Assembly (NCBI GenBank): GCA_049695975.1
Contig: JBAVTE010000012.1
Location: 71,665-135,664 of the forward strand
Source of the DNA: Minisyncoccia bacterium
GTDB lineage: Bacteria; Patescibacteriota; Minisyncoccia; Phycocordibacterales; GWA1-40-21
Direction of reading: 5' to 3'
DNA length: 64,000 nucleotides
Shown here: positions 27,175-62,349 of the stretch, piece after piece
Layout: each line of letters begins with the position of its first letter
Numbering within the stretch: position 1 is the first letter of the stretch
Translations under genes and position numbers: made by a program
Notes under the pieces: generated by a model
Seen by the model: only the letters and a program-made list of their open reading frames with translations
Databases searched by the model: none
What the model was told of the DNA's origin: nothing

Positions 27175-27188
27175 AGGTACTTTAAAAC

Positions 27189-27215
27189 CCATGTCAAGGA
27201 CGGTCCTTGACATGG
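27189..27215. repeat. REP-like palindrome copy 1 (CCATGTCAAGGAC G GTCCTTGACATGG)
   Basis: Two perfect 13-nt arms around a single central G, lying 26 nt upstream of the Y1-transposase ORF. Confidence 0.85.
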
Positions 27216-32114: not shown

Positions 32115-32247
32115 AAAAACAAAATTTTCGTAGCAAAGTGCTTTTGAACATCCTTGGGAGTCGCGACTGGAGACGGACAGAGAAAATTTTTTGCAAAAAA
32201 TTTTCGTGATGGTCAAAAGCATTTTGTGGAGGGAGTTTTTGTTTCAG
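32115..32247 (+). repeat. MITE-like element B1 (palindrome-embedded repeat, family B)
   Basis: ~80-nt core CTTTTGAACATCCTTGGGAGTCGCGACTGGAGACGGACAGAGAAAATTTTTTGCAAAAAATTTTCGTGATGGTCAAAAG, about 90% identical to B2 and B3, set inside its own flanking inverted repeat. Lies between the convergent lysM-M23 gene and comM. Confidence 0.7.
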
Positions 32248-36229: not shown

Positions 36230-36300
36230 CGCGGGCGTAGTTTAACGGTAGAACTAGTCCTTGCCAAGGATTGGGTTCGGGTTCGATTCCCGGCGCCCGC
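36230..36300 (+). tRNA. tRNA-Gly (anticodon GCC)
   Basis: Acceptor GCGGGCG/CGCCCGC, anticodon loop TTGCCAA, T-loop TTCGATT. TATAAT at 36211-36216 upstream and a terminator hairpin downstream. Confidence 0.8.
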
Positions 36301-36301
36301 A

Positions 36302-36339
36302 CAATTAGAAAACCTCCCTTTTGGGAGGTTTTCTAATTG
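36302..36339 (+). terminator. rho-independent terminator after tRNA-Gly
   Basis: Hairpin CAATTAGAAAACCTCCC-TTTT-GGGAGGTTTTCTAATTG. Confidence 0.7.
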
Positions 36340-36991
36340 TGCAAAAGAAAATGCAAATTTATTTGCATTCGTCCGGGAATCAAACGGCTGAGTAATGTTT
36401 TTTAAAAAGAAAATATACGAATGAGTTGGTATCCAGACAAAGTTTGTCAGTGAAACTTTAGTCGAGAGAGTTTTTACCACGCTCGCAGTCAACCTAATAC
36501 TGAATTTTCCTAAAAGCCACCAAAAATTAAAAGGACAAATAATAAACATAAGTAAAGGAACTTGCCAATCCCCTGTTTTGGGAAACGCTTATTATATAGA
36601 GCTGCTTTTGTGAAACATGTGGATAACTGTGTGAATATGTTGATTAAAGACAGATTGTGGTTTGTCTAAGAATGTGACGAAATTTTCTGAGTCTTTTACA
36701 AAATATGCCTATAAATATGAGGTATTTCATTAAAGACCCGTCCTAGTAATGTCCTTATTTTGTAGTATTACTTTGTCAATAGGTCGATTATATAAATGAA
36801 GTGTTTCTAAGTAACATTTTATACAAATGTTACACATGAAATGAAATTCGTAATTTTTAGCTAAAAAATATACACAATTCTTTCATTTTAAATATTTTTT
36901 GAATTTTTCATTAATATACTCAAATATTGCGAACATTTGATGTGTTCTTGTGTATTTATGATATTTATATATAATATATTCATTAATTGGG

Positions 36992-37405: not shown

Positions 37406-37798
37406 GATCTCCGGAGGCGAAGCCTTCGTAAGAAAATTAATTTTCCAACAAAAAACCGCCTGAAACAAATTGGTTCAGGCGGCGAAAGCGAACGCTGAGC
37501 AAGACATCATTTCTGCATCTACGCCCCGAGAGACATAAGTGTCCCCAAATATAGAGGCAAATGCATTGAGCACAAAATAAGATCTAACTAAGCAAACCTT
37601 TCTGAGGTTGTACACACCTCTTGGAAAGAACAATCGTGGTCATAATGGTGATAAGGAGATTTGATTTGAGTTACAAAATACAATCACCTAACGACCTCTA
37701 CCTGCTATTATACTATTTTAATAAAAGACATGTAAAGGACACACCTGTGGATAACTATTTATTATGAAACGTCCTTTAGAAATATATTATTAATTTGC

Positions 37799-39394: not shown

Positions 39395-40387
39395 CTATGG
39401 ATTATTATGAAATTTTTTATGCACATCACGTAGGTGTTTGTCGGTGACGTGAGTGTAAATTTGCGTGGTGGCAATGTTGGCGTGACCGAGCATGACTTGT
39501 ACGGAGCGAATGTCTGCACCATTACTGAGGAGGTCGGTAGCAAAGCAGTGTCGGATCACGTGAGGCGTAACTTTTTTTGAAATTCCGGCAATGGTTGCAT
39601 ATCTTTTTACAATTCTTGCAATCGTTCTTTTATCAAGAAATCCATGGGGATTATTTTCATTATTTTTTTGAAATTTAGTTGAATTTTTTGTGCTCGGTGT
39701 TTGTTTTTTTGTAGGATTGACAGAAATTTGGGTAAATAGGGCATCAGACATATCATTCCTGAGGACTAAATAATCTTTTATCGATTTTTTCGCTTCATCG
39801 GAAAGAAAAACCACCCGCACTTTTCCTCCTTTCCCTCGAATGGAAAATTCATCCATTTTTAAGTCCAAATCGTTTGTAAGTGAACAAAGTTCGGAGACAC
39901 GAAGACCTGTGGAAAACAAAAGCTCCAAAATAGCCTTATCACGAGCTCGCCGTTCTGGATTTTCTTCTTGATTTGGTGCATTTAATAGTCTCTTCAATTC
40001 ATCAGGAGATATAGTATCAATTGACCGTTCATTTACTTTTGCAAGCTCGATATTATCGGCTGATAGGGAAGCGATTCCGCGACGAGTTAAAAATTTTAGA
40101 AAAATTCTGAGAGCAATTAAATAAAAATTCTGAGTTTTCTTACTCATTGTTCCGCCGGGAGTAGCGGACTCGCCCAAGAGATGATAACTTTTTGCCCCTG
40201 GCCGACGGTTTAGCCAAATGCGAAATTCCCGCACTTTTTCATTGGTAATATCTTTTGGGTCAGTAATTTTTGTTTGTTCAAAGAAAAGAGTAAGATAGCG
40301 GTCATAGTTTTCTATCGTTTTGAGCGAGCGTCCTTTTTCTATTTCAATATATTCTAGGAATTGTGTTTTGAGTTCTCTGGTGTTCAT
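39395..40387 (-). CDS. xerC: site-specific tyrosine recombinase XerC/XerD family
   Basis: C-terminal catalytic box …HVIRHCFATDLLSNGADIRSVQVMLGHANIATTQIYTHV… and an N-terminal SAM-like core-binding domain. Confidence 0.85.
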   Translation of the reverse strand: MNTRELKTQFLEYIEIEKGRSLKTIENYDRYLTLFFEQTKITDPKDITNEKVREFRIWLNRRPGAKSYHLLGESATPGGTMSKKTQNFYLIALRIFLKFLTRRGIASLSADNIELAKVNERSIDTISPDELKRLLNAPNQEENPERRARDKAILELLFSTGLRVSELCSLTNDLDLKMDEFSIRGKGGKVRVVFLSDEAKKSIKDYLVLRNDMSDALFTQISVNPTKKQTPSTKNSTKFQKNNENNPHGFLDKRTIARIVKRYATIAGISKKVTPHVIRHCFATDLLSNGADIRSVQVMLGHANIATTQIYTHVTDKHLRDVHKKFHNNP

Positions 40388-41659: not shown

Positions 41660-41791
41660 AATCCCGTTAGAGATAGATGAATTTTTTTGCAACAAAAAAA
41701 TTCATCGTAGAGAACCCACGTTCTCAATTTAACAGGATTTATCAGGTAATCAGATTAAGTGCCAATTCATAACACTTTAATCTCTAACGGG
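41660..41791 (+). promoter_or_regulatory. conserved structured 5' leader element, copy L1 (upstream of pnp)
   Basis: Begins AATCCCGTTAGAGATAG, contains two internal perfect hairpins, and ends …CAGATTAAGTGCCAATTCATAACACTTTAATCTCTAACGGG immediately before the ATG. The 5' 14 nt are the exact reverse complement of the 3' 14 nt (ATCTCTAACGGGAT), which includes the A and U of the start codon. Copies L2 and L3 are at 48302-48425 and 61153-61275. Confidence 0.6.
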
Positions 41792-43909
41792 ATGCATAAG
41801 AAAGAATTTTCGACAGAGTTTGGAGGTAGGACACTTACTGCGGAGTTTAGTGATCTCGCAGAAAACGCGCATGGTTCAGTACTTTTGAAATATGGAAACA
41901 CAATGGTTTTTGCCACGGCTGTTATTTCAAAAGAACCAAAGTTGGGGGGAGACTATCTGCCTCTCACCGTCGATTATGAAGAAAAGTTTTATGCAAGCGG
42001 TCAGATTCTTGGAAGTAGATTTATGAAAAGAGAAGGTAAACCATCGGACGAAGCTATTTTGACTGGAAGAATTGTAGATAGAACTATTCGTCCACTTTTT
42101 GATCAGTGGATTAGACACGAAATACAAGTGGTGGTCACCGTACTTTCTCTAGACACAGATGATCCAGACATACTTTCTGTTATTGCAGCATCTCTTGCGG
42201 TTTCCGTTTCCAAAATTCCATTTCATGGACCTGTCAGCGCCACAAGAGTTGGTAAACACAAACTTGATGGTTTTCAAATAAATCCGTCATATATTGAAAG
42301 AGAAAATGAAAATTATGAAATCGATCTTATTGCCTGTGGAAAAGATGGAAATATCAATATGATAGAACTTGGTGGAGATGAAGCCCAGGAGTCAGTCGTT
42401 GTGGAAGGTCTTAATCTTGCATCAATAGAAATAGAAAAAATAAATGAGTGGCAAAAGAAAATTATTTCTGAAATTGGTGAAAAAAAGATTTCACTTCCTG
42501 CTCCGGTAATGCCAGAAACTGTGTCCAAACTTTTTTCAGATAAAATTGAGCCAAAGCTCGAAAGTTTTGTAATGAGTGGAATTCCAGGCGGGTCAAAAAT
42601 AGGCGAAATAATGTCGGAGTGGATGAATCTAGCCGAGAAAAATTTTCCGGAAGATGTGCATTTTGCTGAACATTTATTTGAAGAAAAAGTAGATGCAATG
42701 ATTCATGATCAGGCATTGAAAAATAACAAGAGAGCAGATGGTAGAGGAATTGATGATTTGCGACCTCTTTTTGCACAAGCGGGTGGAGTCTCTCCAATAC
42801 TTCATGGTTCAGGAATCTTTTATAGAGGAGGAACGCACATTTTGACGACACTTACCCTCGGTGGACCAAGTGATGCACAAATAATAGATGGAATGGAAGA
42901 AAGTAATAATGCAAAAAGATTTATGCACCATTACAATTTCCCTCCATATTCAACTGGCGAGACAGGAAAAATGGGTGGAACAAATAGAAGAATGATAGGC
43001 CATGGCGCACTCGCTGAAAAAGCTCTTTTGCCAATGATTCCTTCTAATAGCGTTTTTCCTTACACAATTCGTCTAGTATCTGAAGCATTTTCTTCAAACG
43101 GTTCAACTTCAATGGGTTCTGTTTGTGGATCTACTCTTGCTCTCATGGACGGAGGTGTGCCAATCAAGAAACCGGTAGCTGGAATTGCTTCAGGATTAAT
43201 GATGGATGAAAAAGGAAATTATAAAGTTCTCACAGATATTCAAGGCCCCGAGGATCATTATGGTGATATGGATTTTAAAGTTGCGGGGACAAAAGATGGA
43301 GTTACTGCTATTCAAATGGATGTAAAAGTCAGTGGTGTTCCTGTAAATATTCTCGCCGAGGCCTTTGAAAAAGCAAAAATTGCACGACTCAAAATTCTCG
43401 ATGTGATTTTGAAAGCTATTGCTGAACCAAGAAAAGATATTTCAGCAAACGCACCAAAAATTTTAGTAATAAAAATTAAACCGGATCAGATTGGTGGAGT
43501 GATTGGTTCTGGGGGAAAAGTTATTAAAGAAATTAAAGAAAAAACTGGTGCTGATATCGATATTGAAGATGATGGCACTGTGTATTGTACCGGCAAAGAC
43601 GGTTCGGCAGAAAAGGCCAAGTTGATTATTGAAGCTATGACTCATGAATACAAGGCAGGAGAAAGATACGAGGGAATTGTAACAAAAACCACCGATTTTG
43701 GTGCTTTTGTGAAAATTGGGATGGGTGATACAGAAGGCCTTGTACATGTTTCAGAAATTGCACCTTTTAGAGTAGATAATGTCAGCACGATTTTGAAAGA
43801 AGGAGACAAAGTACCAGTCGTTGTAAAAGGTATAGATGAAAGAGGACGTATTAGTCTTTCTATTAAACTAGCTGATTCAGAATGGGCACAAAAGAAGTTG
43901 GGAAAATAA
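41792..43909 (+). CDS. pnp: polynucleotide phosphorylase
   Basis: Two RNase PH domains, KH and S1 domains at the C-terminus. The ORF-track start (GTG at 41759, giving MPIHNTLISNGM) lies inside the shared leader. The start is more likely the ATG at 41792 (MHKKEFSTEF…). Confidence 0.9.
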   Translation: MHKKEFSTEFGGRTLTAEFSDLAENAHGSVLLKYGNTMVFATAVISKEPKLGGDYLPLTVDYEEKFYASGQILGSRFMKREGKPSDEAILTGRIVDRTIRPLFDQWIRHEIQVVVTVLSLDTDDPDILSVIAASLAVSVSKIPFHGPVSATRVGKHKLDGFQINPSYIERENENYEIDLIACGKDGNINMIELGGDEAQESVVVEGLNLASIEIEKINEWQKKIISEIGEKKISLPAPVMPETVSKLFSDKIEPKLESFVMSGIPGGSKIGEIMSEWMNLAEKNFPEDVHFAEHLFEEKVDAMIHDQALKNNKRADGRGIDDLRPLFAQAGGVSPILHGSGIFYRGGTHILTTLTLGGPSDAQIIDGMEESNNAKRFMHHYNFPPYSTGETGKMGGTNRRMIGHGALAEKALLPMIPSNSVFPYTIRLVSEAFSSNGSTSMGSVCGSTLALMDGGVPIKKPVAGIASGLMMDEKGNYKVLTDIQGPEDHYGDMDFKVAGTKDGVTAIQMDVKVSGVPVNILAEAFEKAKIARLKILDVILKAIAEPRKDISANAPKILVIKIKPDQIGGVIGSGGKVIKEIKEKTGADIDIEDDGTVYCTGKDGSAEKAKLIIEAMTHEYKAGERYEGIVTKTTDFGAFVKIGMGDTEGLVHVSEIAPFRVDNVSTILKEGDKVPVVVKGIDERGRISLSIKLADSEWAQKKLGK

Positions 43910-44931: not shown

Positions 44932-45000
44932 ATAAATAGCGCTTTAATACCTTTTATTTTTTCTTATTTTGTGTTAGATTTACTTTACATCGGGGTATGG

Positions 45001-45071
45001 TGTAACGGTAGCATACGTGCTTTGGGAGCATGCAGTCCGAGTTCAAATCTCGGTACCCCGACAATAATTAC
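45001..45071 (+). tRNA. tRNA-Pro (anticodon TGG)
   Basis: Acceptor CGGGGTA/TACCCCG, anticodon stem CGTGC/GCATG with loop TTTGGGA, T-arm CCGAG-TTCAAAT-CTCGG. Confidence 0.7.
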
Positions 45072-45185
45072 CTTGAGGTAGTTTTGTTCGAGATTTGAAT
45101 GACGGAGCAATATCGAGCCAGCAGGCGAGATTGCGAGTCGGGGTCGCAGAAATTTCCGAACGACGGTGAGAAAATTATCTGTGAC

Positions 45186-45211
45186 CAAATCTCGGTACCC
45201 CGACAATAATT
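45186..45211 (+). repeat. direct repeat of the tRNA-Pro 3' end plus trailer (26 nt), 106 nt downstream of the tRNA
   Basis: CAAATCTCGGTACCCCGACAATAATT at 45054-45079 is repeated exactly at 45186-45211. The 106-nt insert between them contains CGAGATTTGAA, the reverse complement of the tRNA T-arm. Confidence 0.8.
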
Positions 45212-48028: not shown

Positions 48029-48301
48029 CTATCGAACTGCCTCTTTCAAGGCCTTTGCTGCTCTAAATTTTGGAACTTTCATAGCTGGAACGGAGATTGA
48101 TTCTCCTGTTCTTGGGTTTCTGGCTTGTCTGGCGGCTCTCTGTTTGACAGAGAAGATACCGAGACCTGCAATAGAAACATCTTCGCCTTTCTTTAAACCA
48201 CCGACAATTGTATCAATAACTATATCCACGACTTGCTCTGACTGAACTTTTGTTCCATTAAGCAATTTATTTACTGCCTCTGCAATTGATTGTTTATTCA
48301 T
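48029..48301 (-). CDS. hup: DNA-binding protein HU
   Basis: MNKQSIAEAVNKLLNGTKVQSEQVV…RNPRTGESISVPAMKVPKFRAAKALKEAV is a typical 90-aa HU. The ORF-track start (48334, MPIHNTLISNGM…) lies inside the shared leader copy L2. Confidence 0.85.
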   Translation of the reverse strand: MNKQSIAEAVNKLLNGTKVQSEQVVDIVIDTIVGGLKKGEDVSIAGLGIFSVKQRAARQARNPRTGESISVPAMKVPKFRAAKALKEAVR

Positions 48302-48425
48302 CCCGTTAGAGATTAAAGTGTTATGAATTGGCACTTAATCTGGTTAAAAAATAAATCCTGTTAAATCTCGAGAAGTTGTATTCTCTTCGGAAACAATCTG
48401 ATCGTTTCCTATCTCTAACGGGATT
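48302..48425 (-). promoter_or_regulatory. conserved structured 5' leader element, copy L2 (upstream of hup, minus strand)
   Basis: The minus-strand sequence AATCCCGTTAGAGATAG…ATTTAACAGGATTTAT…CAGATTAAGTGCCAATTCATAACACTTTAATCTCTAACGGG-ATG is identical to L1 over the last ~45 nt and the first 17 nt. Its internal hairpins differ from L1 but remain hairpins. Confidence 0.6.
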
Positions 48426-51192: not shown

Positions 51193-51333
51193 AAAAAAGA
51201 CCGAGAAAACTTATAACAAAACGCTTTTGTCCGTCACGAAAATTTTTTACTAAAAATCTTCTCTGTCCGTCGCCAGTCGCAACTTCCAAGGACGTTCGAA
51301 AGCGTTTTGTTATAAGTTTTCTCGGTCTTTTTT
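51193..51333 (-). repeat. MITE-like element B3 (family B core in reverse orientation inside a 33-bp perfect inverted repeat)
   Basis: Flanking AAAAGACCGAGAAAACTTATAACAAAACGCTTT…AAAGCGTTTTGTTATAAGTTTTCTCGGTCTTTT. The reverse-complemented core matches B1 and B2 (TTCGAACGTCCTTGGAAGTTGCGACTGGCGACGGACAGAGAAGATTTTTAG…). Lies between convergent thrH and clpP. Confidence 0.7.
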
Positions 51334-53700: not shown

Positions 53701-54459
53701 ATGATTTACTTTTTTTATGGAGAAGATATTGAAAAGTCAAAAGTAAATGCCGACAAAGTGGTCAGTAGTATTTTGACTAGGAAAAAAGATATTACACTCG
53801 TCAAAATTATCGGTGAAGAAATTTCTGAACAAAGAATTTTTGAACTAGCACAAAGTCAAGCGCTTTTTGTAAACAAATATATTGTTTTTCTCTATCGTGT
53901 TTTAGATAATGTTGAAAATAAAAAGGCCATTCTTTCTGCTCTCGAAGAAATGAAAGAAAGTGAAAATATTTTTGTGCTGTGTGATATTTTGACTTCTAAA
54001 AAGAAGACCGATCTAGAAATAATTAAAAAAATAGAAGAAAAATCAGAAAAATCAAAAGAGTTTCAAAAACCATTTAGAAAATTGAACAAAAAAGAAGAGC
54101 TCGCTCTCATAGGTGAAAAAATCGATTTTTTTGAATTTGCAAATGCCTTGGGTGCAAGGAAAAGAAAAGAGCTTTGGGTACTTTTTCAAGATGCTTTAAA
54201 TGAGTCTGTGCCGGCGGAAGAGATTCATGGAATATTTTTCTGGCAAATAAAAACAATGATCCTTGCAAAGAAGTGCAAGACGGCAAATGAGGCCGGAATG
54301 AAGGACTTCCCATTTCAAAAATCAAAGCGTTATGCGGAAAATTATACAGAAGATGAGCTAAAAAATCTCTCATCAAAAATGGTTTCCATGTATCATGAAG
54401 CACATAGGGGAAATGCCGATATGCACGTGGCGCTAGAGAGAATGGTGATGGGGCTGTAA
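53701..54459 (+). CDS. holA: DNA polymerase III delta subunit-like protein
   Basis: N-terminal MIYFFYGEDIEK… and a length/helical C-terminus typical of HolA. Confidence 0.5.
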   Translation: MIYFFYGEDIEKSKVNADKVVSSILTRKKDITLVKIIGEEISEQRIFELAQSQALFVNKYIVFLYRVLDNVENKKAILSALEEMKESENIFVLCDILTSKKKTDLEIIKKIEEKSEKSKEFQKPFRKLNKKEELALIGEKIDFFEFANALGARKRKELWVLFQDALNESVPAEEIHGIFFWQIKTMILAKKCKTANEAGMKDFPFQKSKRYAENYTEDELKNLSSKMVSMYHEAHRGNADMHVALERMVMGL

Positions 54460-54470
54460 CTTTTTAATCG

Positions 54471-54486
54471 GTGCCCTCAGTAGGAA
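54471..54486. repeat. copy of tRNA-Lys 3'-end segment (GTGCCCTCAGTAGGAA), first of three
   Basis: The same 16-mer occurs at 54797-54812 and at the tRNA-Lys 3' end (54950-54965). Confidence 0.8.
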
Positions 54487-54796
54487 TATCTCTTTCGACT
54501 TTTTTCTCGTCGTCACTCGAAAAAGTCTGGGTACCAGCTCGTCTATTTTTCTTGCTAGAAAAATATGATTCCGCTGTTCGATTCCTACACGCAAGCAAAG
54601 CAGTTTGCTTGCTTTCGGGCCCAAATAGAAAAAGACGCCGAAGCGTCTCTTTTTAAATTTGTGAACCACGACTTTTGCCTTTCGTGAACTCAAGGCAAAG
54701 TCGCAGTCCCCGCCTCCTTCGCTTTGCTCAGTCCGGCCGGCACATTGCAAAAGAAAATCGCCTTTGGATCATTGGCGATTTTCATATATTTGCAAT

Positions 54797-54812
54797 GTGC
54801 CCTCAGTAGGAA
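54797..54812. repeat. copy of tRNA-Lys 3'-end segment, second of three
   Basis: Exact repeat of the 16-mer GTGCCCTCAGTAGGAA. Confidence 0.8.
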
Positions 54813-54832
54813 ATCTTCCATTACATGGACGG

Positions 54833-54896
54833 TACACCTTTTCTGTTTTCTGTTCGTGAAGACACTCCAGAAAACTATCAAAGGTCTTCGATTCCT
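54833..54896. repeat. 64-nt sequence shared with the tRNA-Arg locus (59447-59510)
   Basis: TACACCTTTTCTGTTTTCTGTTCGTGAAGACACTCCAGAAAACTATCAAAGGTCTTCGATTCCT is identical at both loci. It contains a GAAGAC…GTCTTC hairpin and a T-arm-like TTCGATTCC. Confidence 0.85.
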
Positions 54897-54949
54897 AACG
54901 CAAGGTCTCCCAGACCTTGCTCTGAGGGCACTCTTCATTTCATTCATCG

Positions 54950-55022
54950 TGCCCTCAGTAGGAATCGAACCTACGACCAATTGCTTAAAAGGCAACTGCT
55001 CTACCAACTGAGCTATGAGGGC
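54950..55022 (-). tRNA. tRNA-Lys (anticodon TTT)
   Basis: The reverse complement gives acceptor GCCCTCA/TGAGGGC, anticodon stem GTTGC/GCAAT with loop CTTTTAA, and T-arm GTAGG-TTCGATT-CCTAC. Confidence 0.8.
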
Positions 55023-55092
55023 ATTGATAGACAACAAAAAATATACCAAGAAAATTTAAAAAAGTCCAATTTTCTTTCACTATAACTTTGCC

Positions 55093-55515
55093 CTACAGAT
55101 GTAGGTCAAATGCAAACGCACCTGCGCCAGAAAAAATAAGAGAGACGGAAATCGTAAAAAGCAAAAGATAAAAAGGAAAATTTCTTTTTATAAGTACCTC
55201 TTCCTCCAATTCTAAGATAAGTTCGGACAAAGTGATGAGTATGAAAACTAAGGCGACAATCTGAATATATATACCAGCGATGAGCATTAGTCCGCCGATT
55301 ATTTCAACAAGCGCAAAAATTTTTACAAACCAGAGAGAAGGACGTAGTCCAGTAAAATCAAAAAGATTTCCCCATCTTTCTTTTTCTGCACCGAATTTCA
55401 AAAAGCCAAGATTTATCATTATGAGTCCTAGCACGGCTCTTAAAATGAGTGGAGCGAACATACTATAGGTTAACAGATCTGGAAATGTATTTAACATATG
55501 ACTATTATAATACAA
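55093..55515 (-). CDS. DoxX-family membrane protein
   Basis: Four TM helices; the N-terminal …APLILRAVLGLIMINLGFLKF… resembles DoxX. Confidence 0.5.
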   Translation of the reverse strand: MYYNSHMLNTFPDLLTYSMFAPLILRAVLGLIMINLGFLKFGAEKERWGNLFDFTGLRPSLWFVKIFALVEIIGGLMLIAGIYIQIVALVFILITLSELILELEEEVLIKRNFPFYLLLFTISVSLIFSGAGAFAFDLHL

Positions 55516-55574
55516 TTATATTATTTTGCATCTTTTTGATTGATTTTTTGTTTCAATGTCGTAGTATTTGAAGA

Positions 55575-56048
55575 ATGATTAAAAAACAAAAATTTGTGGT
55601 CCTAGTAGATATAAGAAGTATCCACAATGTCGGTTCGATTTTTAGGACATCAGATGCTCTTGGAGTATCTAAGATTTTTCTTTGCGGATGTACGCCGACA
55701 GCGAAAGATAGATTTGGTAGAAAGAGGCAGGATCTGGCAAAAGTGGCGCTAGGAGCGGAGGAAAGTGTGGCTTGGGAATATTGCGAAAATGTAGAAAAAC
55801 TTTTGCAGAAATTAAAAAAGGAAAAAGTGCAAATCATTGCGCTTGAGCAAAGCTCAAAATCGATAAACTACAAAAAAGTCAAAACAAAAAATTCTGTTGC
55901 AATAATTCTCGGTGAAGAAGTGCACGGTTTGTCACAAAAAGTTCTTAAATTTGCCGATGTCATCACCGAAATCCCAATGCTTGGTAAAAAAGAATCACTG
56001 AATGTTTCTGTTGCTTTTGGTGTTGCAGGATTTGAGATTTTGATTTAA
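55575..56048 (+). CDS. SpoU/TrmH-family RNA 2'-O-methyltransferase
   Basis: SPOUT motifs …IALEQ…AIILGEEVHGLS…ITEIPMLGKKESLNVSVAFGV…. Confidence 0.7.
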   Translation: MIKKQKFVVLVDIRSIHNVGSIFRTSDALGVSKIFLCGCTPTAKDRFGRKRQDLAKVALGAEESVAWEYCENVEKLLQKLKKEKVQIIALEQSSKSINYKKVKTKNSVAIILGEEVHGLSQKVLKFADVITEIPMLGKKESLNVSVAFGVAGFEILI

Positions 56049-56070
56049 TTTCAATTAGAGTTATTATTAT

Positions 56071-57351
56071 ATGAATATGGAAAAGATACTGAAATTGGTA
56101 AAGAAAATCATACCGAAAAATCTGGTAGCAAAAGGCAGGCCAGTGTACCACTATATGTTGGCTTTTGTGGGGGCAGTTTATTATGGTTTTCCTGCAAAAA
56201 AGCTCAAAGTTGTGGCGATAACGGGTACAAAAGGCAAGACTACTACCACCGAGCTTGTGAATGCAATCCTTGAAGAAGCAGGCTTTAAAACGGCCCTTGC
56301 CAGTACTTTACGGTTTAAAATTGGTGAGAAAAGTGAAGACAACAAGTTCAAAATGACTATGCCGGGGAGATTTTTCCTACAAAATCTTTTAAGAAAAGCG
56401 GTAGATGCTCAGTGTGATTGGGCAGTTATAGAAATGTCTTCAGAAGGAGCAAAACAGTTTAGACACAAGTTCATAGATCTGAATGCTCTTATTTTTACAA
56501 ATCTTTCACCGGAACATATAGAATCACACGGTTCATATGAGAAATATTTGGAGGCAAAACTTTCTATTGCAAAAGCTTTGGAAGATTCTTCAAAAAGTGG
56601 AAAAGTAATAGTTTCGAATATAGATGATAAAGAAGGGCAAAAATTTTTAGATGCAAACATTTCAAATAAATTTGCGTATTCCATAAAAAATGCCGAACCA
56701 TTTTCTTTACAGAAGGAGGGAATTACAATGGTTTTTGATGGAGTAAAAATCGTTTCCCGACTTACCGGTAAATTTAACATTTATAATATACTCGCGGCCG
56801 GAACTTTTGCCGGAGCGGAAGGGATTGGTGCTGAGACAATTAAAAATGCTCTTGAAAAAGTTTCTGTTATTCGTGGCAGAGTGGAAAGAATCAAAGAAGG
56901 GCAAAGTTTTGACGTTGTCGTGGACTATGCTCATACCTCGGATTCTCTCCGAGAACTTTATGAGGCCTTTTTAAATCAGCCGAAGGTCTGTGTGCTTGGA
57001 AATTGTGGAGGGGGTAGAGATAAATGGAAGAGGAAAGAAATGGCGCTTATTGCAGAAAAATATTGTGACAAGATTATTCTGACAGACGAGGATCCATACG
57101 ACGAGAATCCTGGAGAAATCGTGGAAGATATGGCAAAAGAGATGCAGAAAAAGAAACCGGAAATAATAATGGATAGGAGAAAAGCTATCAAAAGAGCTAT
57201 AGAAATTTCCGATAAAAACGGTGCGGTGCTTATTACAGGCAAGGGGACCGACCCTTACATAATGAGAAAAAATGGTGAGAAAGAGGAATGGAGTGATGCA
57301 AAGGTAGCAAGCGAAGAGTTGAAAAAGTTTTTGAATAAAACCCATGCCTGA
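56071..57351 (+). CDS. murE: Mur ligase family protein (MurE-like UDP-MurNAc-tripeptide synthetase)
   Basis: ATP-binding AITGTKGKTTTT and Mur ligase middle and C-terminal domains. At 426 aa it is shorter than a canonical MurE. Confidence 0.6.
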   Translation: MNMEKILKLVKKIIPKNLVAKGRPVYHYMLAFVGAVYYGFPAKKLKVVAITGTKGKTTTTELVNAILEEAGFKTALASTLRFKIGEKSEDNKFKMTMPGRFFLQNLLRKAVDAQCDWAVIEMSSEGAKQFRHKFIDLNALIFTNLSPEHIESHGSYEKYLEAKLSIAKALEDSSKSGKVIVSNIDDKEGQKFLDANISNKFAYSIKNAEPFSLQKEGITMVFDGVKIVSRLTGKFNIYNILAAGTFAGAEGIGAETIKNALEKVSVIRGRVERIKEGQSFDVVVDYAHTSDSLRELYEAFLNQPKVCVLGNCGGGRDKWKRKEMALIAEKYCDKIILTDEDPYDENPGEIVEDMAKEMQKKKPEIIMDRRKAIKRAIEISDKNGAVLITGKGTDPYIMRKNGEKEEWSDAKVASEELKKFLNKTHA

Positions 57352-58240
57352 ACTTCCAGAAGTAGAAACTACTTGCAGAATTTTGGATAAAAAAATAAAA
57401 AATCTTTTTATAGAAGATGTTTGGACAGATTACCGTGGAAAATCTGCGAAATATTCTTTGGGAATAAAAGATTCAGAATATTTTTATAATTTTAAAAAAG
57501 AAATCATCAATAAGAAAATCCTCGGTGTGGAGAGAAGAGCAAAAAATGTTTTGATAAAACTTTCGGAAGGAAACACTGTTTTGATTCATATGAAAATGAC
57601 GGGGCATCTTTTGTATGGTGAATATGATTTTTTAAATAAAAAATGGTCGCCAAAAGAGGGCGGTGCATTGAAAGATCCATACAATAGATTTGTCCATTTA
57701 GTTTTTTCTTTGTCTGATGGAAAGAAACTTGTACTTTCCGATGCGAGAAAGTTTGCAAAGATTTTACTTCTAGAAAGAGAAAAATGCGAGGAAGAATTTT
57801 GTGAAACAGGACCAGAACCCCTAAATAAAAGTTTTTCTTACAAGATTTTTACAGAACGGATTAATAAAAGACCAAAAAGTAAAATAAAAACTGTTTTAAT
57901 GGATCAAAATGTAATTGCTGGGATAGGAAATATCTATTCCGATGAAATTTTATGGACTTCCTCCGTGCATCCAGAAAAAATAGTAAAAAATCTTTCAGAA
58001 AAGCAAAAGAAAGAAATTTATAAAAATATAAGAATTATTTTAGAAAAATCCATTAAACTCGGCGGGGATTCAATGTCTGATTATCGCAATCCGTATGGTG
58101 AAAAGGGGAGATTTCAAGATTTTCATAAGGTTTACAGAAAGACCGGAGAAAAATGTGTAAAAAAGGGCTGTTCGGGAATTATTAAAAGAATTATCGTGGG
58201 TGGTAGGAGCACCCATTTCTGCCCAGTGCATCAAGTTTAA
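57344..58240 (+). CDS. mutM: formamidopyrimidine-DNA glycosylase
   Basis: N-terminal MPELPEVET, an H2TH region and a C-terminal zinc finger (C…C…CPVHQ). Confidence 0.85.
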   Translation: MPELPEVETTCRILDKKIKNLFIEDVWTDYRGKSAKYSLGIKDSEYFYNFKKEIINKKILGVERRAKNVLIKLSEGNTVLIHMKMTGHLLYGEYDFLNKKWSPKEGGALKDPYNRFVHLVFSLSDGKKLVLSDARKFAKILLLEREKCEEEFCETGPEPLNKSFSYKIFTERINKRPKSKIKTVLMDQNVIAGIGNIYSDEILWTSSVHPEKIVKNLSEKQKKEIYKNIRIILEKSIKLGGDSMSDYRNPYGEKGRFQDFHKVYRKTGEKCVKKGCSGIIKRIIVGGRSTHFCPVHQV

Positions 58241-58251
58241 AAAATAACTAT

Positions 58252-58384
58252 AAAAAACAAAAACCTCGTAACAAAGTACTTTTGAACGTCCTTGGAAGTC
58301 GCGACTGGCGACGGACAGAGAAAATTTTTAGCAAAAAATTTTCGTGATGGTCAAAAGTATTTTATGGAGAGGTTTTTGTTTTTT
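58252..58384 (+). repeat. MITE-like element B2 (family B)
   Basis: Core CTTTTGAACGTCCTTGGAAGTCGCGACTGGCGACGGACAGAGAAAATTTTTAGCAAAAAATTTTCGTGATGGTCAAAAG inside the inverted repeat AAAAAACAAAAACCTC…GAGGTTTTTGTTTTTT. Lies between convergent mutM and ruvA. Confidence 0.7.
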
Positions 58385-58394
58385 ATAGTTGTTT

Positions 58395-58964
58395 TTACTT
58401 ACCAAGAATCTTAAGTGCCTCTTTTATTTTCTTGCCAGTTTCCTTGTGTTCATCACCCACTTTTTTTAAAGCATCTCTGGCCTCATCATGTGAATATCCG
58501 AGAGTTTTTAGTGCCTCGAGTGCATCGGATTCTTCTTTGAGTCCTTCATAGTCTCCAGCTTCTCCAATAATTTTATCTTTAAGTTCTAAAACAATTTTAT
58601 CGGCCATCTTTTTACCCATGCCAGAAATTTTGACAAGTGGTCCCACTTCTCCAGTCTTGATAGCCCTCTTTAAGCCATCTACGGTGGCCATGCTCATTAT
58701 GCCCAGAGCTGTTTTTGGACCAATTCCGGAAATAGTGATAAGTAATTCAAAAAAGTCCAAATCTTCTTTTTCTAGAAAACCATAAAGTGTCTGTGCATCT
58801 TCTCGGACAGCGAAGTGAGTCCAAAGAGAAATTTCAACCCCAACTTTTTTATTCTGATGTGACACTTCTGTTGGCACAAAAATTTTATAACCGATGCCAT
58901 TTGTTTCCACTACTATGAATTTTTCTGATAAAAAAATTATTTTTCCAGTAATCTTTGTAATCAT
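58395..58964 (-). CDS. ruvA: Holliday junction DNA helicase RuvA
   Basis: MITKITGKIIFLSEKFIVVETNGIGYKIFVP… with HhH motifs. Confidence 0.85.
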   Translation of the reverse strand: MITKITGKIIFLSEKFIVVETNGIGYKIFVPTEVSHQNKKVGVEISLWTHFAVREDAQTLYGFLEKEDLDFFELLITISGIGPKTALGIMSMATVDGLKRAIKTGEVGPLVKISGMGKKMADKIVLELKDKIIGEAGDYEGLKEESDALEALKTLGYSHDEARDALKKVGDEHKETGKKIKEALKILGK

Positions 58965-59066
58965 ATCTATATTCTATCATATTTGGAAAATTGATTTTTA
59001 TATTGCCTTTTTTTCTAAAAGGTGGTAATCTAGCTTAGTTCAATTAAGAAAAACATTAAATAATAT

Positions 59067-59333
59067 ATGGCAATAACAAGTTCAGCAAAAAAGGCAAATA
59101 GAGCATCTCTCAAAAAGAGAGTTTTTAATATTAGAACAAAGAGAGGTTTTGAAGACGAAATAAGAGATATTAAAATCCTTGTTAAAGAAGGAAAGATAAA
59201 AGAAGCTGAAAAAGCGCTCCCTGTCGCCTACAAAGCAATAGATAAAGCGATGAAGAGAGACTATATAAAGAAAAACACCGCAGCAAGATACAAATCCAGA
59301 CTTACATTGTTTGTAAATAAAGGAAAGAAATAA
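59067..59333 (+). CDS. rpsT: 30S ribosomal protein S20
   Basis: 88 aa, MAITSSAKKANRASLKKRVFN…; terminator at 59350-59377. Confidence 0.85.
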   Translation: MAITSSAKKANRASLKKRVFNIRTKRGFEDEIRDIKILVKEGKIKEAEKALPVAYKAIDKAMKRDYIKKNTAARYKSRLTLFVNKGKK

Positions 59334-59389
59334 ATCAAACTATTAAACAAAAAAACCACCGAGATGTGGTTTTTTTGTTGGCTATTTAC

Positions 59390-59422
59390 GAGAGCTCTTT
59401 TTATAATTGTCCCCCCGCCAGG
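59390..59422. repeat. direct repeat of tRNA-Arg 3' end plus 3' flank (33 nt), 143 nt from the tRNA-proximal copy
   Basis: AGAGCTCTTTTTATAATTGTCCCCCCGCCAGGA occurs at 59390-59422 and again at 59566-59598, the latter overlapping the tRNA 3' end. Confidence 0.85.
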
Positions 59423-59446
59423 ATATCTCTCCCTACGGGAGCTGTA

Positions 59447-59510
59447 CACCTTTTCTGTTTTCTGTTCGTGAAGACACTCCAGAAAACTATCAAAGGTCTT
59501 CGATTCCTGG
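59447..59510. repeat. 64-nt sequence shared with the tRNA-Lys locus (54833-54896)
   Basis: Identical 64-mer; see 54833-54896. Confidence 0.85.
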
Positions 59511-59583
59511 ACGAAACTGCTACCCAGCAGTTTCTCGGTGGGACAAAATAAAAAGGCTCTTGGAAGAGCTCTTTTTATAATTG

Positions 59584-59655
59584 TCCCCCCGCCAGGAATC
59601 GAACCTGGATTTCTTCCTTCGCAGGGAAGTGTCCTATCCATTGAACGACGAGGGG
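59584..59655 (-). tRNA. tRNA-Arg (anticodon reads GCG by hand)
   Basis: The reverse complement gives acceptor CCCCTCG/CGGGGGG with one G-U pair, D-stem GTTC/GGAC, anticodon stem CTTCC/GGAAG with loop CTGCGAA, and T-arm CCAGG-TTCGATT-CCTGG. Confidence 0.65.
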
Positions 59656-59825
59656 AATTTAAAAACTCTAACACATTTTGCTTTAAATTACGAAAAAAAT
59701 GGATTCCCCACAGTGCTTTTCTGCTGAAAAGCATGCAGGGCCCATCTCGCGCCGTCGCGCTCCGATCTTGCACTTGGGTTCCAACCCAAGCTCACGTTTG
59801 CACGGGAATGACAGAGAGAGGAGAT

Positions 59826-60287
59826 TTAAAATCCCAAAAATTCCATAACTCTTTTTGAAGCGGTTTCCTCGAGTTCTTTTTCTTTTATTTTTTTTATGAG
59901 AAAATTTCTTATGTTATTTATGTCTGCATCCTCTATGATGATAGAGTGTATTGGTGCAAGAAATTTGTTTGTTTTAAGAATCAAAAGGTCTTCGTCTTTT
60001 GTGTCTTTTATCCAGAAACATTCGATGGACTCATAGGCCATAAAATCTCCACCAGCTTTGATTCCTTTTTCATTTATTTCATATTCAAAAACAGTAGAAT
60101 CTTTTCTGATGACGGTCATCAAAGCAAAGACTGATACTACGACGAGTATTACGAATGCATAATTGTGAAGAAATATGGCGATGATGATTGTTGATAAAGA
60201 AATAATACCCCAAGACCAATACCAATCCACACTTCTTTCTTTTTTACGATACTCAGGTGCTGTCCATTTAATTTTTGAATCCATATG
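59826..60287 (-). CDS. hypothetical two-TM membrane protein
   Basis: Likely start MDSKIKW…. The longer ORF up to 60422 would overlap the tpiA start. Confidence 0.4.
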   Translation of the reverse strand, partial: HMDSKIKWTAPEYRKKERSVDWYWSWGIISLSTIIIAIFLHNYAFVILVVVSVFALMTVIRKDSTVFEYEINEKGIKAGGDFMAYESIECFWIKDTKDEDLLILKTNKFLAPIHSIIIEDADINNIRNFLIKKIKEKELEETASKRVMEFLGF

Positions 60288-61152: not shown

Positions 61153-61275
61153 ATCCCTTTAGAGATAGAAACAATCAGATTGATTACGTAAAATTAATCA
61201 AATAATAAAATTTAATAACAATAATTTAATAAATAGATTAAGGTGGTAATTCATAACACATTAATCTCTAACGGG
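61153..61275 (+). promoter_or_regulatory. conserved structured 5' leader element, copy L3 (upstream of capA-like gene)
   Basis: ATCCCTTTAGAGATAG…AAACAATCAGATTG…TAGATTAAGGTGGTAATTCATAACACATTAATCTCTAACGGG-ATG. The 3' 30 nt are nearly identical to L1 and L2, and the 5' end has one mismatch. Confidence 0.55.
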
Positions 61276-62349
61276 ATGGAAAAAGGTTTTTTAAAAAAAT
61301 TATCGGCAATGATTTTGGAGGGTTTTGTCCTCGCGTTTTTTATTTTTGCTTTTGTACAAATGCCGTCTGAATTATTGTCTATTTGGCAAAATTTAAAAGA
61401 TAGAAAATTGAGTATAGAAGAAATAAATATATTAAATAAAAATATTTCTTCTGTTATTGAGTCTCGGAACTTTGCCGAAATAACAAAATCCAATGAAACC
61501 ACCTTGGCTTTTGTCGGGGATATAATGCTTGATAGAGGTGTCTATTCTAAATTTATAAAAAATGGTAATGGTGATTATTATTTTCCCTTTGCAAAAATAA
61601 AAGATGATTTGGCTAAGTATGATCTAGTCTTTGGAAATCTTGAAGGGCCTATGTCAGACAAGGGGCAAGATTCGCACAACCTGTATTCTTTTGAGATGGA
61701 TCCAAATTTTGCACCAGTATTGCGAGATATTGGTTTCAAGGTTTTGTCTATTGCAAATAACCACATAGATAATTGGGGAAAAATAGCGATGGAGGATACT
61801 TTTTCTAGACTAAAAGAAAATAGAATAATTGTTTCAGGCGGAGGAATGAATGAAAGCGAAGCGTATGGTGTAAATGTCATAAATGTTGATGGAAATAAAA
61901 TTGCGATTTTATCTTTTAGTCAGTTTGGCGCAGGACAATATAGTGCGACAGCAAGCTCTTCTGGAATTGCTATCCTAGATCAGAAAAAAGTTGAAGAAAG
62001 TGTAAAAATGGCTAGAAACATGGCTGATATTGTGGTGGTGTCGTTTCACTTTGGGGAAGAATACAAAAATATACCTAACGATTTTCAGAAAAAATGGGCG
62101 AAGATTGTAGTGGATGTGGGTGCGGATCTCGTCGTTGGCGGACATCCTCATGTGGTGGAGCCAGTAGAACAATACAGGAATGTTTTTATTGCGTATAGTT
62201 TAGGAAATTTTGTTTTCGATCAGTATTTTTCTCCAGAAACAATGTCGGGAGGTCTTCTTGAAGTAAAAATAAAAGATAAAAAAATTATTTCAGTAAATTT
62301 AAGAAAAATCCAGATGAATAGCGAATATCAGCCGGAACTTGTGGAATAG
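61276..62349 (+). CDS. capA: CapA/PgsA-family (PGA_cap) metallophosphatase-like protein
   Basis: …LAFVGDIMLDRG…NLEGP…ANNH…GGHPH…SLGNFVFDQ… The likely start is MEKGFLKK…, after the leader; the ORF-track start is at 61243. Confidence 0.7.
   Translation: MEKGFLKKLSAMILEGFVLAFFIFAFVQMPSELLSIWQNLKDRKLSIEEINILNKNISSVIESRNFAEITKSNETTLAFVGDIMLDRGVYSKFIKNGNGDYYFPFAKIKDDLAKYDLVFGNLEGPMSDKGQDSHNLYSFEMDPNFAPVLRDIGFKVLSIANNHIDNWGKIAMEDTFSRLKENRIIVSGGGMNESEAYGVNVINVDGNKIAILSFSQFGAGQYSATASSSGIAILDQKKVEESVKMARNMADIVVVSFHFGEEYKNIPNDFQKKWAKIVVDVGADLVVGGHPHVVEPVEQYRNVFIAYSLGNFVFDQYFSPETMSGGLLEVKIKDKKIISVNLRKIQMNSEYQPELVE

Follow-up and report, generated by a model that had tools for sequence, protein, structure and literature searches.

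A non-coding unit behind a tRNA-Arg gene of a Minisyncoccia bacterium belongs to a large family that has the layout of Escherichia coli RtT repeats

Behind the tyrT gene of Escherichia coli lie repeats of 178 bp, each ending in the last 19 bases of the tRNA, that have been known for decades. To our knowledge, neither the origin nor a settled function of these repeats and of the corresponding RtT RNA has been established. RtT RNA, whose description in 1991 is cited in PMC4986893, is expressed and released from tRNA transcripts, and members of the family adjoin other tRNA genes in Pasteurellaceae (PMC4986893). The RtT unit (Rfam family RF00391) measures ~130-178 nt, immediately follows a tRNA gene on the same strand, and its end repeats the 3' end of the tRNA from the T-loop onwards (AATCCTTCCCCCACCACCA). 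Its 5' arm (GGGGAAGGAT) is an inverted copy; paired with this 3' copy, it makes up the outer helix in the Rfam consensus, and the interior of the unit is structured. RtT units occur in tandem arrays that vary in copy number, at 1-10 places per E. coli genome.

The locus studied here lies in a stretch of 64 kb from a Minisyncoccia bacterium (Patescibacteriota), denoted as the window. A tRNA-Arg(GCG) gene without an encoded CCA is located on its minus strand at 59584-59655 (Rfam RF00005, 60.7 bits; ARAGORN gives 59583-59655). A direct repeat of 33 nt, AGAGCTCTTTTTATAATTGTCCCCCCGCCAGGA, occurs in exactly two copies, at 59391-59423 and 59565-59597, and none of 100 shuffled sequences yielded a match to it. 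The first-pass annotation had recognized this exact two-copy repeat, with coordinates off by one (59390-59422 and 59566-59598), and had given 176 bp for the unit and 143 nt for the insert; the measured spacing is 174 nt and the insert comprises 141 nt (59424-59564). It had rightly placed the second copy across the tRNA: this proximal repeat (59565-59597, minus strand) covers 14 nt of the live tRNA (T60-A73, 59584-59597) and continues into 19 nt of downstream flank (59565-59583). The distal repeat (59391-59423, minus strand), a second copy of the tRNA 3' end and flank, adjoins the rpsT terminator. No ORF is present in the insert, and its neighbors are rpsT, ruvA, tpiA, and an ORF of 198 aa without a Pfam match, for which no database record was found.

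Mis-assembly can create short exact repeats around tRNA genes, and the repeat might accordingly stem from duplicated or collapsed reads, the artefact that the earlier reading had asked to be checked. In an independent Logan unitig (SRR28012095), the sequence stops at the base matching position 59420, the branch point that a 33-mer in two contexts requires at k=31. The insert is moreover a structured family member, and more than 130 further copies of the layout exist in many unrelated public assemblies. The repeat is real, and the chance of an artefact is practically negligible.

Read on the tRNA strand, a unit consists of a leader, an antisense arm, a two-helix core, and a sense copy of the tRNA 3' end. 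The leader of the tRNA-Arg unit (59550-59576) is a hairpin resembling an intrinsic terminator, with an A-run, a GGCTCT/AGAGCT stem, and a T-run, identified by terminator-like calls on both strands and by predicted folds; half of it lies within the flank part of the proximal repeat. Part 1 of the antisense arm (59536-59549, minus strand) reads CGGTGGGAC (59536-59544) followed by AAAAT on the plus strand and pairs with the repeat in predicted folds. CGGTGGGAC equals the inverted acceptor 3' strand of tRNA-Arg at 8 of 9 positions, and the inverted copy runs on into the flank. Part 2 (59499-59510, minus strand), TTCGATTCCTGG on the plus strand, matches the inverted T-loop (T54-T60) and the T-stem 3' strand at 12 of 12 positions and makes up the last 12 nt of GGTCTTCGATTCCTGG (59495-59510, plus strand). 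The arm is interrupted exactly at the T-stem/acceptor boundary by a predicted hairpin of 22 nt, termed H1 (59513-59534, minus strand; 9-bp stem and 4-nt loop). The inverted T-arm sequence that had been noticed between the repeat copies is present, not as an isolated motif but as part of a complete antisense tRNA 3' end. The remaining segment is a core of family B (59424-59498, minus strand; alignment of 18 family-B cores, fold z-scores of -7.3 and -6.9), composed of a helix P1 around a central hairpin, a GTAC linker, a small hairpin (59429-59441), and an AGATA end.

The same layout is found at four of the six tRNA genes of the window (Arg, Lys, Pro, and Gly(GCC)). The tRNA-Lys(UUU) gene (54950-55022) is followed by three tandem units, the whole locus spanning 54471-55022 on the minus strand: a family-B unit (54813-54948), a decayed A-like core (54661-54744), and a family-A core (54484-54587). 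Its 3'-end repeat GTGCCCTCAGTAGGAA is present at 54949-54964, 54797-54812, and 54471-54486. On the plus strand, tRNA-Pro(UGG) with a family-A unit that lacks H1 occupies 44991-45211 (core at 45089-45193; 26-nt repeats at 45044-45069 and 45186-45211), and tRNA-Gly(GCC), with a palindromic terminator leader and a decayed family-A unit, occupies 36231-36500 (core at 36374-36476; degenerate distal repeat). The likeness of the Lys and Pro loci to tRNA-Arg had been noted as a common architecture and taken as a sign of a recurrent process rather than a one-off rearrangement, a view that holds well beyond the window, with units behind ~26 of 106 tRNA genes in related Patescibacteria genomes.

The tRNA-Arg unit (174 bp) is a core-family-B member of a large non-coding family located 3' of Patescibacteria tRNA genes. 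This family is apparently undescribed; a full-text literature search found no description of such units in Patescibacteria. Its members measure ~100-170 nt, are always oriented as the tRNA, and lie immediately 3' of it; of 103 tRNAs, 13 have an inverted T-arm copy downstream and none has one upstream. In metagenome contigs, 76 of 100 matches to one core pattern lie less than 700 nt downstream of a same-strand tRNA and 14 more at contig edges. The upstream tRNAs comprise 33 anticodon types, and the distal repeat agrees with the upstream tRNA in nearly all units. At the ten matches without a detected upstream tRNA, a scan for tmRNA and other RNA genes showed nothing relevant; they seem to represent long arrays, tRNAs in decay, or a tRNA with an intron. 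Two core families, A and B, are distinguished, probably besides a third one.

Across the family, the leader is usually a terminator-like hairpin between an A-run and a T-run, and leader and H1 are predicted together, as two hairpins, in 50 of 75 units. The antisense arm is complementary to the stretch between T54 and the 3' end of the neighboring tRNA, usually with H1 inserted where T-stem and acceptor meet, and the distal sense copy begins in the T-loop. The loop type of H1 follows the core family, and a purine-rich leader type (ACGAA..GTGAG) is constant and holds a fixed position between the tRNA-derived segments. The borders of the units read TCGAA|core and core|CGAAT or AGAAAT. Within the repeat, 14-19 nt stem from the tRNA and 0-19 nt from the flank, and the right junction varies from position 56 to position 61. 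The repeat ends 0-2 nt past the tRNA in 32 of 35 intact non-redundant units; its description as tRNA 3' end plus flank is correct for tRNA-Arg, whose 19 nt of flank are an outlier, and the longer flank extensions of other units are remnants of tandem units. With a variable length and a normal stop at the tRNA end, the repeat was rejected as a fixed-length target-site duplication. Tandem arrays were observed behind tRNA-Lys of the window and behind a tRNA-Pro gene (locus L017), and a perfect tandem is present at locus L100.

A common Y-shaped fold is predicted in 75 non-redundant units. The cores show strong covariation of base pairs. Among 135 copies of family A, 92.1% of the positions are paired, compared with 65.6% in shuffles and 32-49% in slid controls; 31 of 32 pairs vary on both sides, with a covariation score of 0.643 versus 0.205. 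In 18 family-B cores, aligned without fitting to the structure, 13 of 15 pairs show compensatory changes. The tRNA-sense strand is the strand that folds, since G.U pairs exceed A.C pairs there by 155 to 48 overall (89 to 20 in the core alone), and the sense-strand fold is the more stable one in 10 of 12 units. The G.U excess fits a folded single DNA strand equally well because G.T is tolerated in DNA too. Helices 1 and 2 of the family alignment, formed by antisense arm and distal copy, are 83-92% paired. According to the predicted folds, both sense copies of the tRNA 3' end are possible partners of the arm; paired with the distal one, it closes the core by a helix resembling the acceptor and T stems of the tRNA. 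Where distal repeat and tRNA have diverged, the arm tracks the distal copy at just 2 of 58 positions, and it carries 73 mismatches when all types are counted; the closing helix thus gives no sign of compensatory upkeep once a unit exists.

Part of the core is shared between loci. A 64-mer at 59447-59510, most of which is made up by P1 and its central hairpin and which the first reading had described as shared with the tRNA-Lys locus, recurs at 54835-54898 in the family-B unit of tRNA-Lys with 2 mismatches; both fall in tRNA-specific T-stem bases, and the surrounding similarity extends over 101 nt at 85% identity. This 64-mer is the center of the conserved family-B core. The Arg and Lys units differ in their peripheral hairpins, whose divergence involved compensatory changes. 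Two old units that exchanged cores or underwent gene conversion therefore account for the identity better than fresh whole-unit transposition does. Elsewhere, too, cores at different tRNAs are 94-99% identical while H1 and arms differ. Cores would then be exchanged or homogenized among the units of one genome, which would leave the 64-mer common to both units despite their differing hairpins and arms.

The Patescibacteria units share with RtT the placement immediately behind a tRNA gene and on its strand, the distal tRNA copy starting in the T-loop, the inverted 5' arm that pairs with it as an outer helix, a structured interior, and the occurrence in tandem. There is no detectable similarity in sequence or model, and the cores differ: the RF00391 covariance model, which scores E. 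coli copies at 133-137 bits, had no match at E<=5 in the part of the window with the Arg and all Lys units (54400-59900). An Rfam E-value scan of the same part (E<=5) returned nothing relevant besides tRNAs and no ribozyme, and a scan of the window with Rfam 15 at gathering scores returned the six tRNAs only. Further differences concern the antisense arm, which is much longer in Patescibacteria (T54 to the 3' end, often with flank), split by H1, and runs into a palindromic terminator, and the arms matched to tRNAs of 33 anticodon types, unlike RtT. The hosts also differ, Patescibacteria in the one case and Gammaproteobacteria in the other.

Given this shared layout, the units may be an RtT-like RNA module on the tRNA transcript that is multiplied at the tRNA 3' end, a reading with an even chance of being correct. 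As for E. coli RtT RNA, the unit would be transcribed within the tRNA transcript or by read-through from the tRNA, and tRNA-processing enzymes would release it by recognizing the tRNA-like closing helix and 3' end; the G.U excess of the sense strand is an indirect hint of such an RNA. New units would be added at the tRNA 3' end by recombination or duplication anchored in the T-loop; each addition would leave the tRNA intact and shift older units outward, giving rise to tandem arrays. A terminator-like hairpin lies between the tRNA and the remainder of the unit in 51 of 75 units, and co-transcription with the tRNA would therefore depend on read-through. In addition, the arm also pairs with the encoded CCA and flank at three loci (L150, L117, and L016), which a true tRNA mimic leaves single-stranded. 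Against the RtT-like reading stands that it leaves the acquisition of arms for 33 tRNAs by one scaffold without an account.

The combination of a constant scaffold (leader, H1, and core) and two variable segments might instead represent a nucleic-acid-guided system for insertion at tRNA 3' ends, a tentative and unlikely proposal. The variable segments would base-pair with the 3' end of the chosen tRNA gene or transcript and direct a host or trans-encoded enzyme to it. One scaffold could in this way be re-targeted to any tRNA, and E. coli RtT would be a degenerate relative working by the same principle.

Direct repeats of a tRNA 3' end from the T-loop onwards are the classic signature of integrase-mediated insertion, and tandem accretion at tRNA genes is known as well. 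The units share these repeats, the intact tRNA, and the tandem build-up with tRNA-integrating elements and non-autonomous derivatives of these, from which they differ in their size of ~150 bp without integrase or cargo, in the additional inverted target copy and covarying single-strand structure, and in the use of one scaffold for many tRNA species. They could be deletion remnants of tRNA-integrated islands or prophages, i.e. attachment-site scars similar to cis-mobilizable elements that have lost integrase and cargo. This origin is very improbable, as the size range of the units is tight (104-171 nt), no integrase adjoins any of them, and random remnants would not have common covarying cores. 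A phage or plasmid origin was rejected after four core patterns had given 0 matches among 2.9 million viral contigs, and large islands were rejected because 0 of 257 tRNAs had a copy of the 3' end more than 700 nt downstream.

A closer parallel to mobile DNA is offered by the attC sites of integron cassettes and by attP(+) of CTX phage. Like the units, these are strand-specific, with a conserved fold and variable sequence, and their imperfect palindrome has a protruding element and, at the far end, a variable structured part; they are arrayed next to a fixed site and come without a recombinase of their own. The units differ in their target, the T-loop of a tRNA instead of attI or dif, and in arms that copy the target itself; compared with integron cassettes, they lack an integron integrase gene and an R-box (GTTRRRY) at the borders. 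They might accordingly be non-autonomous integrative elements whose mobile form, as with attC cassettes or attP of CTX phage, is a folded single strand, a possible but on balance doubtful alternative. The arms of the excised sense strand would form a duplex copy of the 3' half of the tRNA gene, and a host tyrosine recombinase would swap one strand in the T-loop. The tRNA gene would thereby receive a new 3' end from the unit, and the displaced original would become the distal repeat. Opened at the T-loop, a circle of tRNA 3' copy, leader, antisense arm, and core gives exactly the observed order, and repeats from the T-loop to the tRNA end resemble those left by tRNA-targeting integrases. An intact tRNA 3'-end copy lies beside every unit of an array, as at tRNA-Lys of the window, and the strand-specific G.T excess combined with a conserved fold and variable sequence corresponds to the behavior of attC. 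The leader terminator is apparently supplied by the unit, as the distal flank of the tRNA-Gly unit at locus L017 differs from the leader and empty sites show an ordinary terminator only.

The window also encodes an Xer-like enzyme (39395-40387) that might catalyze such strand exchange. It is the single tyrosine recombinase of the window, lies 19 kb from the tRNA-Arg unit, and is assigned by its best NCBIfam matches to Xer families and to no integron-type integrase; an Xer gene is, however, expected in any bacterium, and no recombinase is linked to any unit. Neither a recombinase nor a reverse transcriptase recurs among the 14 largest ORF clusters around metagenome loci with the family-A pattern. 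No circles or empty-site alleles were seen, and the absence of the core patterns from viral contigs counts against single-strand mobility as well. The junctions are devoid of the integron-type GTTRRRY box, with the right one ranging from 56 to 61. Integration at a non-cognate gene would moreover yield a chimeric dead tRNA, which leaves re-targeting to 33 tRNA types unexplained. A search for a clean empty site in close relatives found none. The best relative (locus L056, RuvA 82% identical) differs in the acceptor stem of its tRNA-Arg and carries, between rpsT and the tRNA, an insertion of 1 kb with a 256-aa ORF, and an 85%-identical relative is a contig of 892 bp.

Small palindromic repeats were compared as well. 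REP/BIME sequences, MITEs, and palindromes derived from IS200/IS605 are small, non-coding, hairpin-forming, and multi-copy, as are the units, which differ in their strict position at the tRNA 3' end, their target-derived arms, and the lack of constant terminal repeats. MITEs possess constant terminal inverted repeats and a fixed-length target duplication, whereas the arms of the units differ by tRNA. The units have hairpins near both ends, yet they are flanked by repeats, while IS200/IS605 elements produce no target duplication. The window harbors a REP-associated tyrosine (Y1) transposase (27241-27933), whose own hairpin repeat CATGTCAAGGACGGTCCTTGACATG is unrelated to the units and of which a homologue is present at just one other locus. 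The units showed no consistent association with this transposase or with small GIY-YIG ORFs near some tRNAs.

The units might also be functionless by-products of template switching during replication. A nascent strand would fold back at the terminator hairpin and copy the tRNA 3' end in reverse, then jump via T-loop microhomology to the core of another unit and return to its own T-loop. Such events need neither an enzyme nor an ORF, and the T-loop is a microhomology common to all tRNAs and present at both core junctions. In many units, the palindrome is unbroken from the terminator via the spacer to the acceptor and T stems, in a place where empty sites have an ordinary terminator. The variable right junction, the near-identical cores at different tRNAs, and the roughly neutral decay of the arm after its formation agree with this origin, too. 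It is nonetheless distinctly improbable: H1 and the ACGAA..GTGAG leader, constant and at fixed positions, go beyond simple fold-back copying, the core structure is under strong purifying selection with a strand-specific G.U bias, and the same layout is found as an expressed RNA in the distant Gammaproteobacteria.

Three further candidates were rejected. An antisense RNA from the promoter-like TTGGCT-18-TATAAT (59378-59407) is not favored, as such sites occur at chance level in this region and the G.U bias favors the other strand. A mini-tRNA gene would carry a direct copy of the 5' strand; the arm is the reverse-complement T-loop including tRNA-specific variants (AATCGGA for TCCGATT) and has no counterpart of the T5.G68 wobble pair found in tRNA-Arg. 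A retrovirus-like primer-binding site disagrees with an arm that complements gene and flank and shows TGG only with a genome-encoded CCA.

With the RtT-like RNA module as the preferred reading, the Patescibacteria units present the RtT layout in a far richer set of hundreds of copies, including at least two strongly covarying core families, arms matched to tRNAs of 33 anticodon types, arrays, and decayed and hybrid units. The family provides comparative material on the origin of RtT-like repeats, their matching to tRNAs, and their role as RNA. The units account for many contig breaks and extra "tRNA fragments" beside tRNA genes in Patescibacteria assemblies and should be masked or modelled in annotation and in searches for genomic-island attachment sites. 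Should the arms act as guides, the units would embody a new programmable targeting principle.

Behind tRNA-Arg(GCG) (59584-59655, minus strand), the 33-mer AGAGCTCTTTTTATAATTGTCCCCCCGCCAGGA is present in exactly two copies in the window (59391-59423 and 59565-59597; chance expectation, none), with a period of 174 nt and an intervening insert of 141 nt (59424-59564). The right copy spans T60 to A73 of the tRNA and 19 nt of downstream flank. The first-pass annotation had recognized this direct repeat and its insert, and the repeat is real, but the positions given for it were one nucleotide off. An independent Logan unitig carrying an identical rpsT gene stops at the base equivalent to 59420, which marks the last k=31 word not common to both repeat copies. 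The graph branching is thus present in independent reads, and the assembly artefact that the first-pass annotation had proposed to check by read support is ruled out.

Read on the tRNA strand, the Arg unit starts with the proximal repeat, i.e. the tRNA 3' end plus flank (59565-59597), and a terminator-like hairpin called on both strands (59550-59576). These are followed by an inverted copy of the flank and the acceptor 3' strand (59536-59549; CGGTGGGAC on the plus strand, 8/9), hairpin H1 with a perfect 9-bp stem (59513-59534), an inverted copy of the T-stem 3' strand and the entire T-loop (59499-59510), a 75-nt core of two helices (59424-59498), and the distal repeat (59391-59423). The inverted T-arm sequence, also reported earlier, forms the terminal part of GGTCTTCGATTCCTGG (59495-59510) and matches tRNA-Arg at 12/12 positions. 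On either strand the unit folds much better than shuffled sequence (z = -7.3 and -6.9). It encloses no ORF, no integrase adjoins it, and no Rfam family matches it. Upstream of the tRNA, between it and a 198-aa ORF, a weak, decayed core resembling family A, one of the core types, is found on the minus strand (59697-59776; 13.4 bits, E = 0.003 in a 651-nt search; terminus GGGGAATCC), which may be an orphan remnant without a tRNA of its own.

The claim that this architecture is recurrent holds beyond the loci originally named, with units at 4/6 tRNA genes of the window. Three copies of the 3' end of tRNA-Lys(UUU) (54949, 54797, 54471) delimit a family-B, a decayed, and a family-A unit; tRNA-Pro is followed by a family-A unit between 26-nt repeats, and tRNA-Gly(GCC) by a decayed one of the same family. 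As had been noted, the 64-mer of the Arg unit (59447-59510) recurs at tRNA-Lys (54835-54898), save for two mismatches, both of them bases of the tRNA-specific T-stem. The two family-B units agree at 62 bases of the core, and 4/9 pairs of their H1 stems differ, all compensated, as do their small hairpins. More generally, cores are 94-99% identical behind different tRNAs (e.g. Ser-UGA and Tyr-GUA 98.8%, Lys and Pro 97.7%), while the H1 hairpins and arms of such near-identical cores differ. An identical H1, GCAAGCAAACTGCTTTGCTTGC, is found at several different tRNAs on different contigs, and a purine-rich leader type (ACGAA..GTGAG) is recurrent among the units. Each unit thus combines constant modules (leader, H1, core) with interleaved tRNA-specific segments; this mosaic structure is established, as are the tandem arrays and the lack of coding capacity. 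For the 64-mer common to the Arg and Lys units, exchange of the core or gene conversion between two old units is the best reading.

The genome of the window belongs to the Patescibacteria (Paceibacteria/Minisyncoccia). Related species-representative genomes were sampled via the neighboring RsmE gene, yielding 54 loci, 34 of them with assessable tRNA genes; a unit is present at about 26/106 tRNA genes, in 12/34 loci. Inverted T-arm copies lie downstream of 13/103 tRNAs in these loci and upstream of none (0/103). A 35-nt degenerate pattern derived from the family-A core retrieved 94 stretches from metagenome contigs, and no core pattern matched viral contigs. Together with the other loci of the analysis, these gave 100 matches: 76 follow a same-strand tRNA gene at a distance below 700 nt, 14 lie at contig edges, and the other 10 look like long arrays, decayed tRNAs, or an intron-containing tRNA. 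In nearly every case, the sequence after the core is the 3' end of that very tRNA. Where the units lie, how they are oriented, and how they are built is established, as is the match of their arms to their own tRNA. The 76 matches follow tRNA genes of 33 anticodon types, and none of the models considered accounts for one scaffold with arms for so many, which leaves room for a guide-type targeting mechanism, albeit a distinctly unlikely one.

Several fetched loci show further peculiarities. An interrupted tRNA gene, not called by ARAGORN, carries about 300 nt of intervening sequence in its anticodon region (L091, ~6270-6900) and has two or more tandem units behind it. Family-A units at L121 (~2500-3050) and L115 (~2900-3400) have only decayed tRNA-like sequence upstream, their arms still matching a tRNA (Asn in L121); they may have survived the loss of their tRNA gene or mark the distal limits of long mixed arrays. 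Among relatives with a usable contig, the closest (L056; RuvA 82% identical) carries a tRNA-Arg(GCG) that differs from that of the window in its acceptor stem and has no small unit; a GC-rich stretch of about 1 kb (735-1700) with a 256-aa ORF of unknown function separates this tRNA gene from rpsT. Small GIY-YIG nuclease-like ORFs adjoin tRNA genes at L091 (5153-5383), L142 (9972-10169), L062 (1218-1442), and L128 (330-539). Those at L091 and L142 have a copy of the same tRNA on either side (Met and Gln, respectively) and a family-A unit downstream. The arrangement suggests a second type of tRNA-linked insertion.

With a covariance model based on seven family-A copies, 135 copies are found. Their alignment is fitted to the model's own structure, which biases the pairing figures towards it: 92.1% of cells are paired (65.6% in shuffles, 32-49% with slid partners), 31/32 pairs are changed on both sides, and the covariation score is 0.643 (0.205 in shuffles). 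In family B, to which the Arg unit with its 64-mer belongs, 18 copies aligned with plain MAFFT, without structure fitting, show compensatory changes in 13/15 pairs. Judged from these comparisons, the core is evidently a selected structure. G.U pairs exceed A.C pairs (155 vs 48 overall, 89 vs 20 in the core alone), which indicates the tRNA-sense strand as the folding strand, be it as RNA or single-stranded DNA; this sense-strand fold counts among the established properties. From T-loop to inverted T-loop, 75 non-redundant units share the same predicted Y-shaped fold, with a terminator-like leader in 51 and both hairpins, leader and H1, predicted in 50.

Among intact non-redundant units (n = 35), the repeat begins in the T-loop and includes 14-19 tRNA-derived nt; in 32 it ends 0-2 nt past the tRNA, which makes tRNA-Arg, with its 19 nt of flank, an outlier. 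The long extensions seen elsewhere (L043, L105, L061, L100) are the first part of an additional tandem unit. Where the distal copy departs from the live tRNA, the antisense arm sides with the tRNA at 55 positions and with the distal copy at two; at 73 positions it resembles neither, with every mismatch type present. The arms do not appear to be kept by compensatory change and, from this pattern, look like copies exact at birth that subsequently decay. Empty tRNA sites are followed by an ordinary terminator, whereas at occupied ones the palindrome continues across the spacer and takes in the acceptor and T stems. Replication template switching alone, the second of two rival readings, would account for such extended palindromes but leaves the constant H1 and leader modules and the selected cores unexplained, and is deemed improbable.

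The main rival, considered unlikely, is a single-strand attC/CTX-like integrative mini-element that would use a host recombinase; the linear order expected from it is exactly the one observed. Its candidate host enzyme would be the only tyrosine recombinase seen in the 64-kb window, encoded by a Xer-type gene (39395-40387, minus strand) with Phage_integrase and SAM-like N-terminal domains and scoring above the NCBIfam XerA cut-off. No tRNA examined has a 3'-end repeat more than 700 nt away.

Other repeats are also found in the window. A REP-associated tyrosine (Y1/HUH) transposase gene (27241-27933, plus strand), with a homologue in one other fetched locus only (L106), is flanked by copies of its palindromic repeat CATGTCAAGGACGGTCCTTGACATG (27184-27209, 27895-27920, 28406-28431, 37723-37748) and, by this arrangement, looks like a small REP/RAYT system. 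Three intergenic copies of an element of about 100-130 nt (32115-32244, 51193-51333, 58240-58396; 86-88% identical, one inverted, one between fpg and ruvA; repeats D2, I1, I2, I4, I5) are long imperfect palindromes and may form a MITE-like family. A sequence of about 40-73 nt (41727-41799, 48294-48366, 61243-61284; 88-92% identical, one inverted; I3, D10, I7) overlaps the PNPase and PGA_cap ORF starts and may represent a common leader or a regulatory element. Just beside dnaA (6301-7638), in the likely origin region, a perfect inverted repeat has arms of 32 nt separated by 56 nt (7729-7848).

The nearest known counterpart of the units is RtT, the tRNA-linked repeat RNA of E. coli, which has the same layout. 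The tyrT-tyrV locus (K-12 NC_000913, 1286709-1287622) harbors four RtT units (RF00391, 133-137 bits), each directly behind a tRNA-Tyr gene or the preceding unit. Each terminates in AATCCTTCCCCCACCACCA, the tRNA from T-loop to CCA, and holds an inverted copy, GGGGAAGGAT, which the Rfam consensus pairs with the terminal copy to form the outer helix. The RtT covariance model does not match the Patescibacteria units, which differ from RtT in core, H1, and palindromic leader. In 4738 E. coli genomes, RtT is present at a median of 3 places per genome (range 1-10), and 18 places are on plasmids. RtT RNAs are visible by Northern blot, adjoin tRNA-Asn and tRNA-Lys genes in Actinobacillus, and are described as freed from tRNA operon transcripts in processing (PMC4986893). 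By analogy, and with roughly even confidence, the units are taken to be RtT-like RNA modules that would be carried along with tRNA transcription and processing and would multiply at the tRNA 3' end by an event anchored in the T-loop. The finding at tRNA-Arg is real and far larger in extent than could be seen from the one stretch: the units form a new and highly abundant group of tRNA-linked repeats, a variant of the still poorly understood RtT type.
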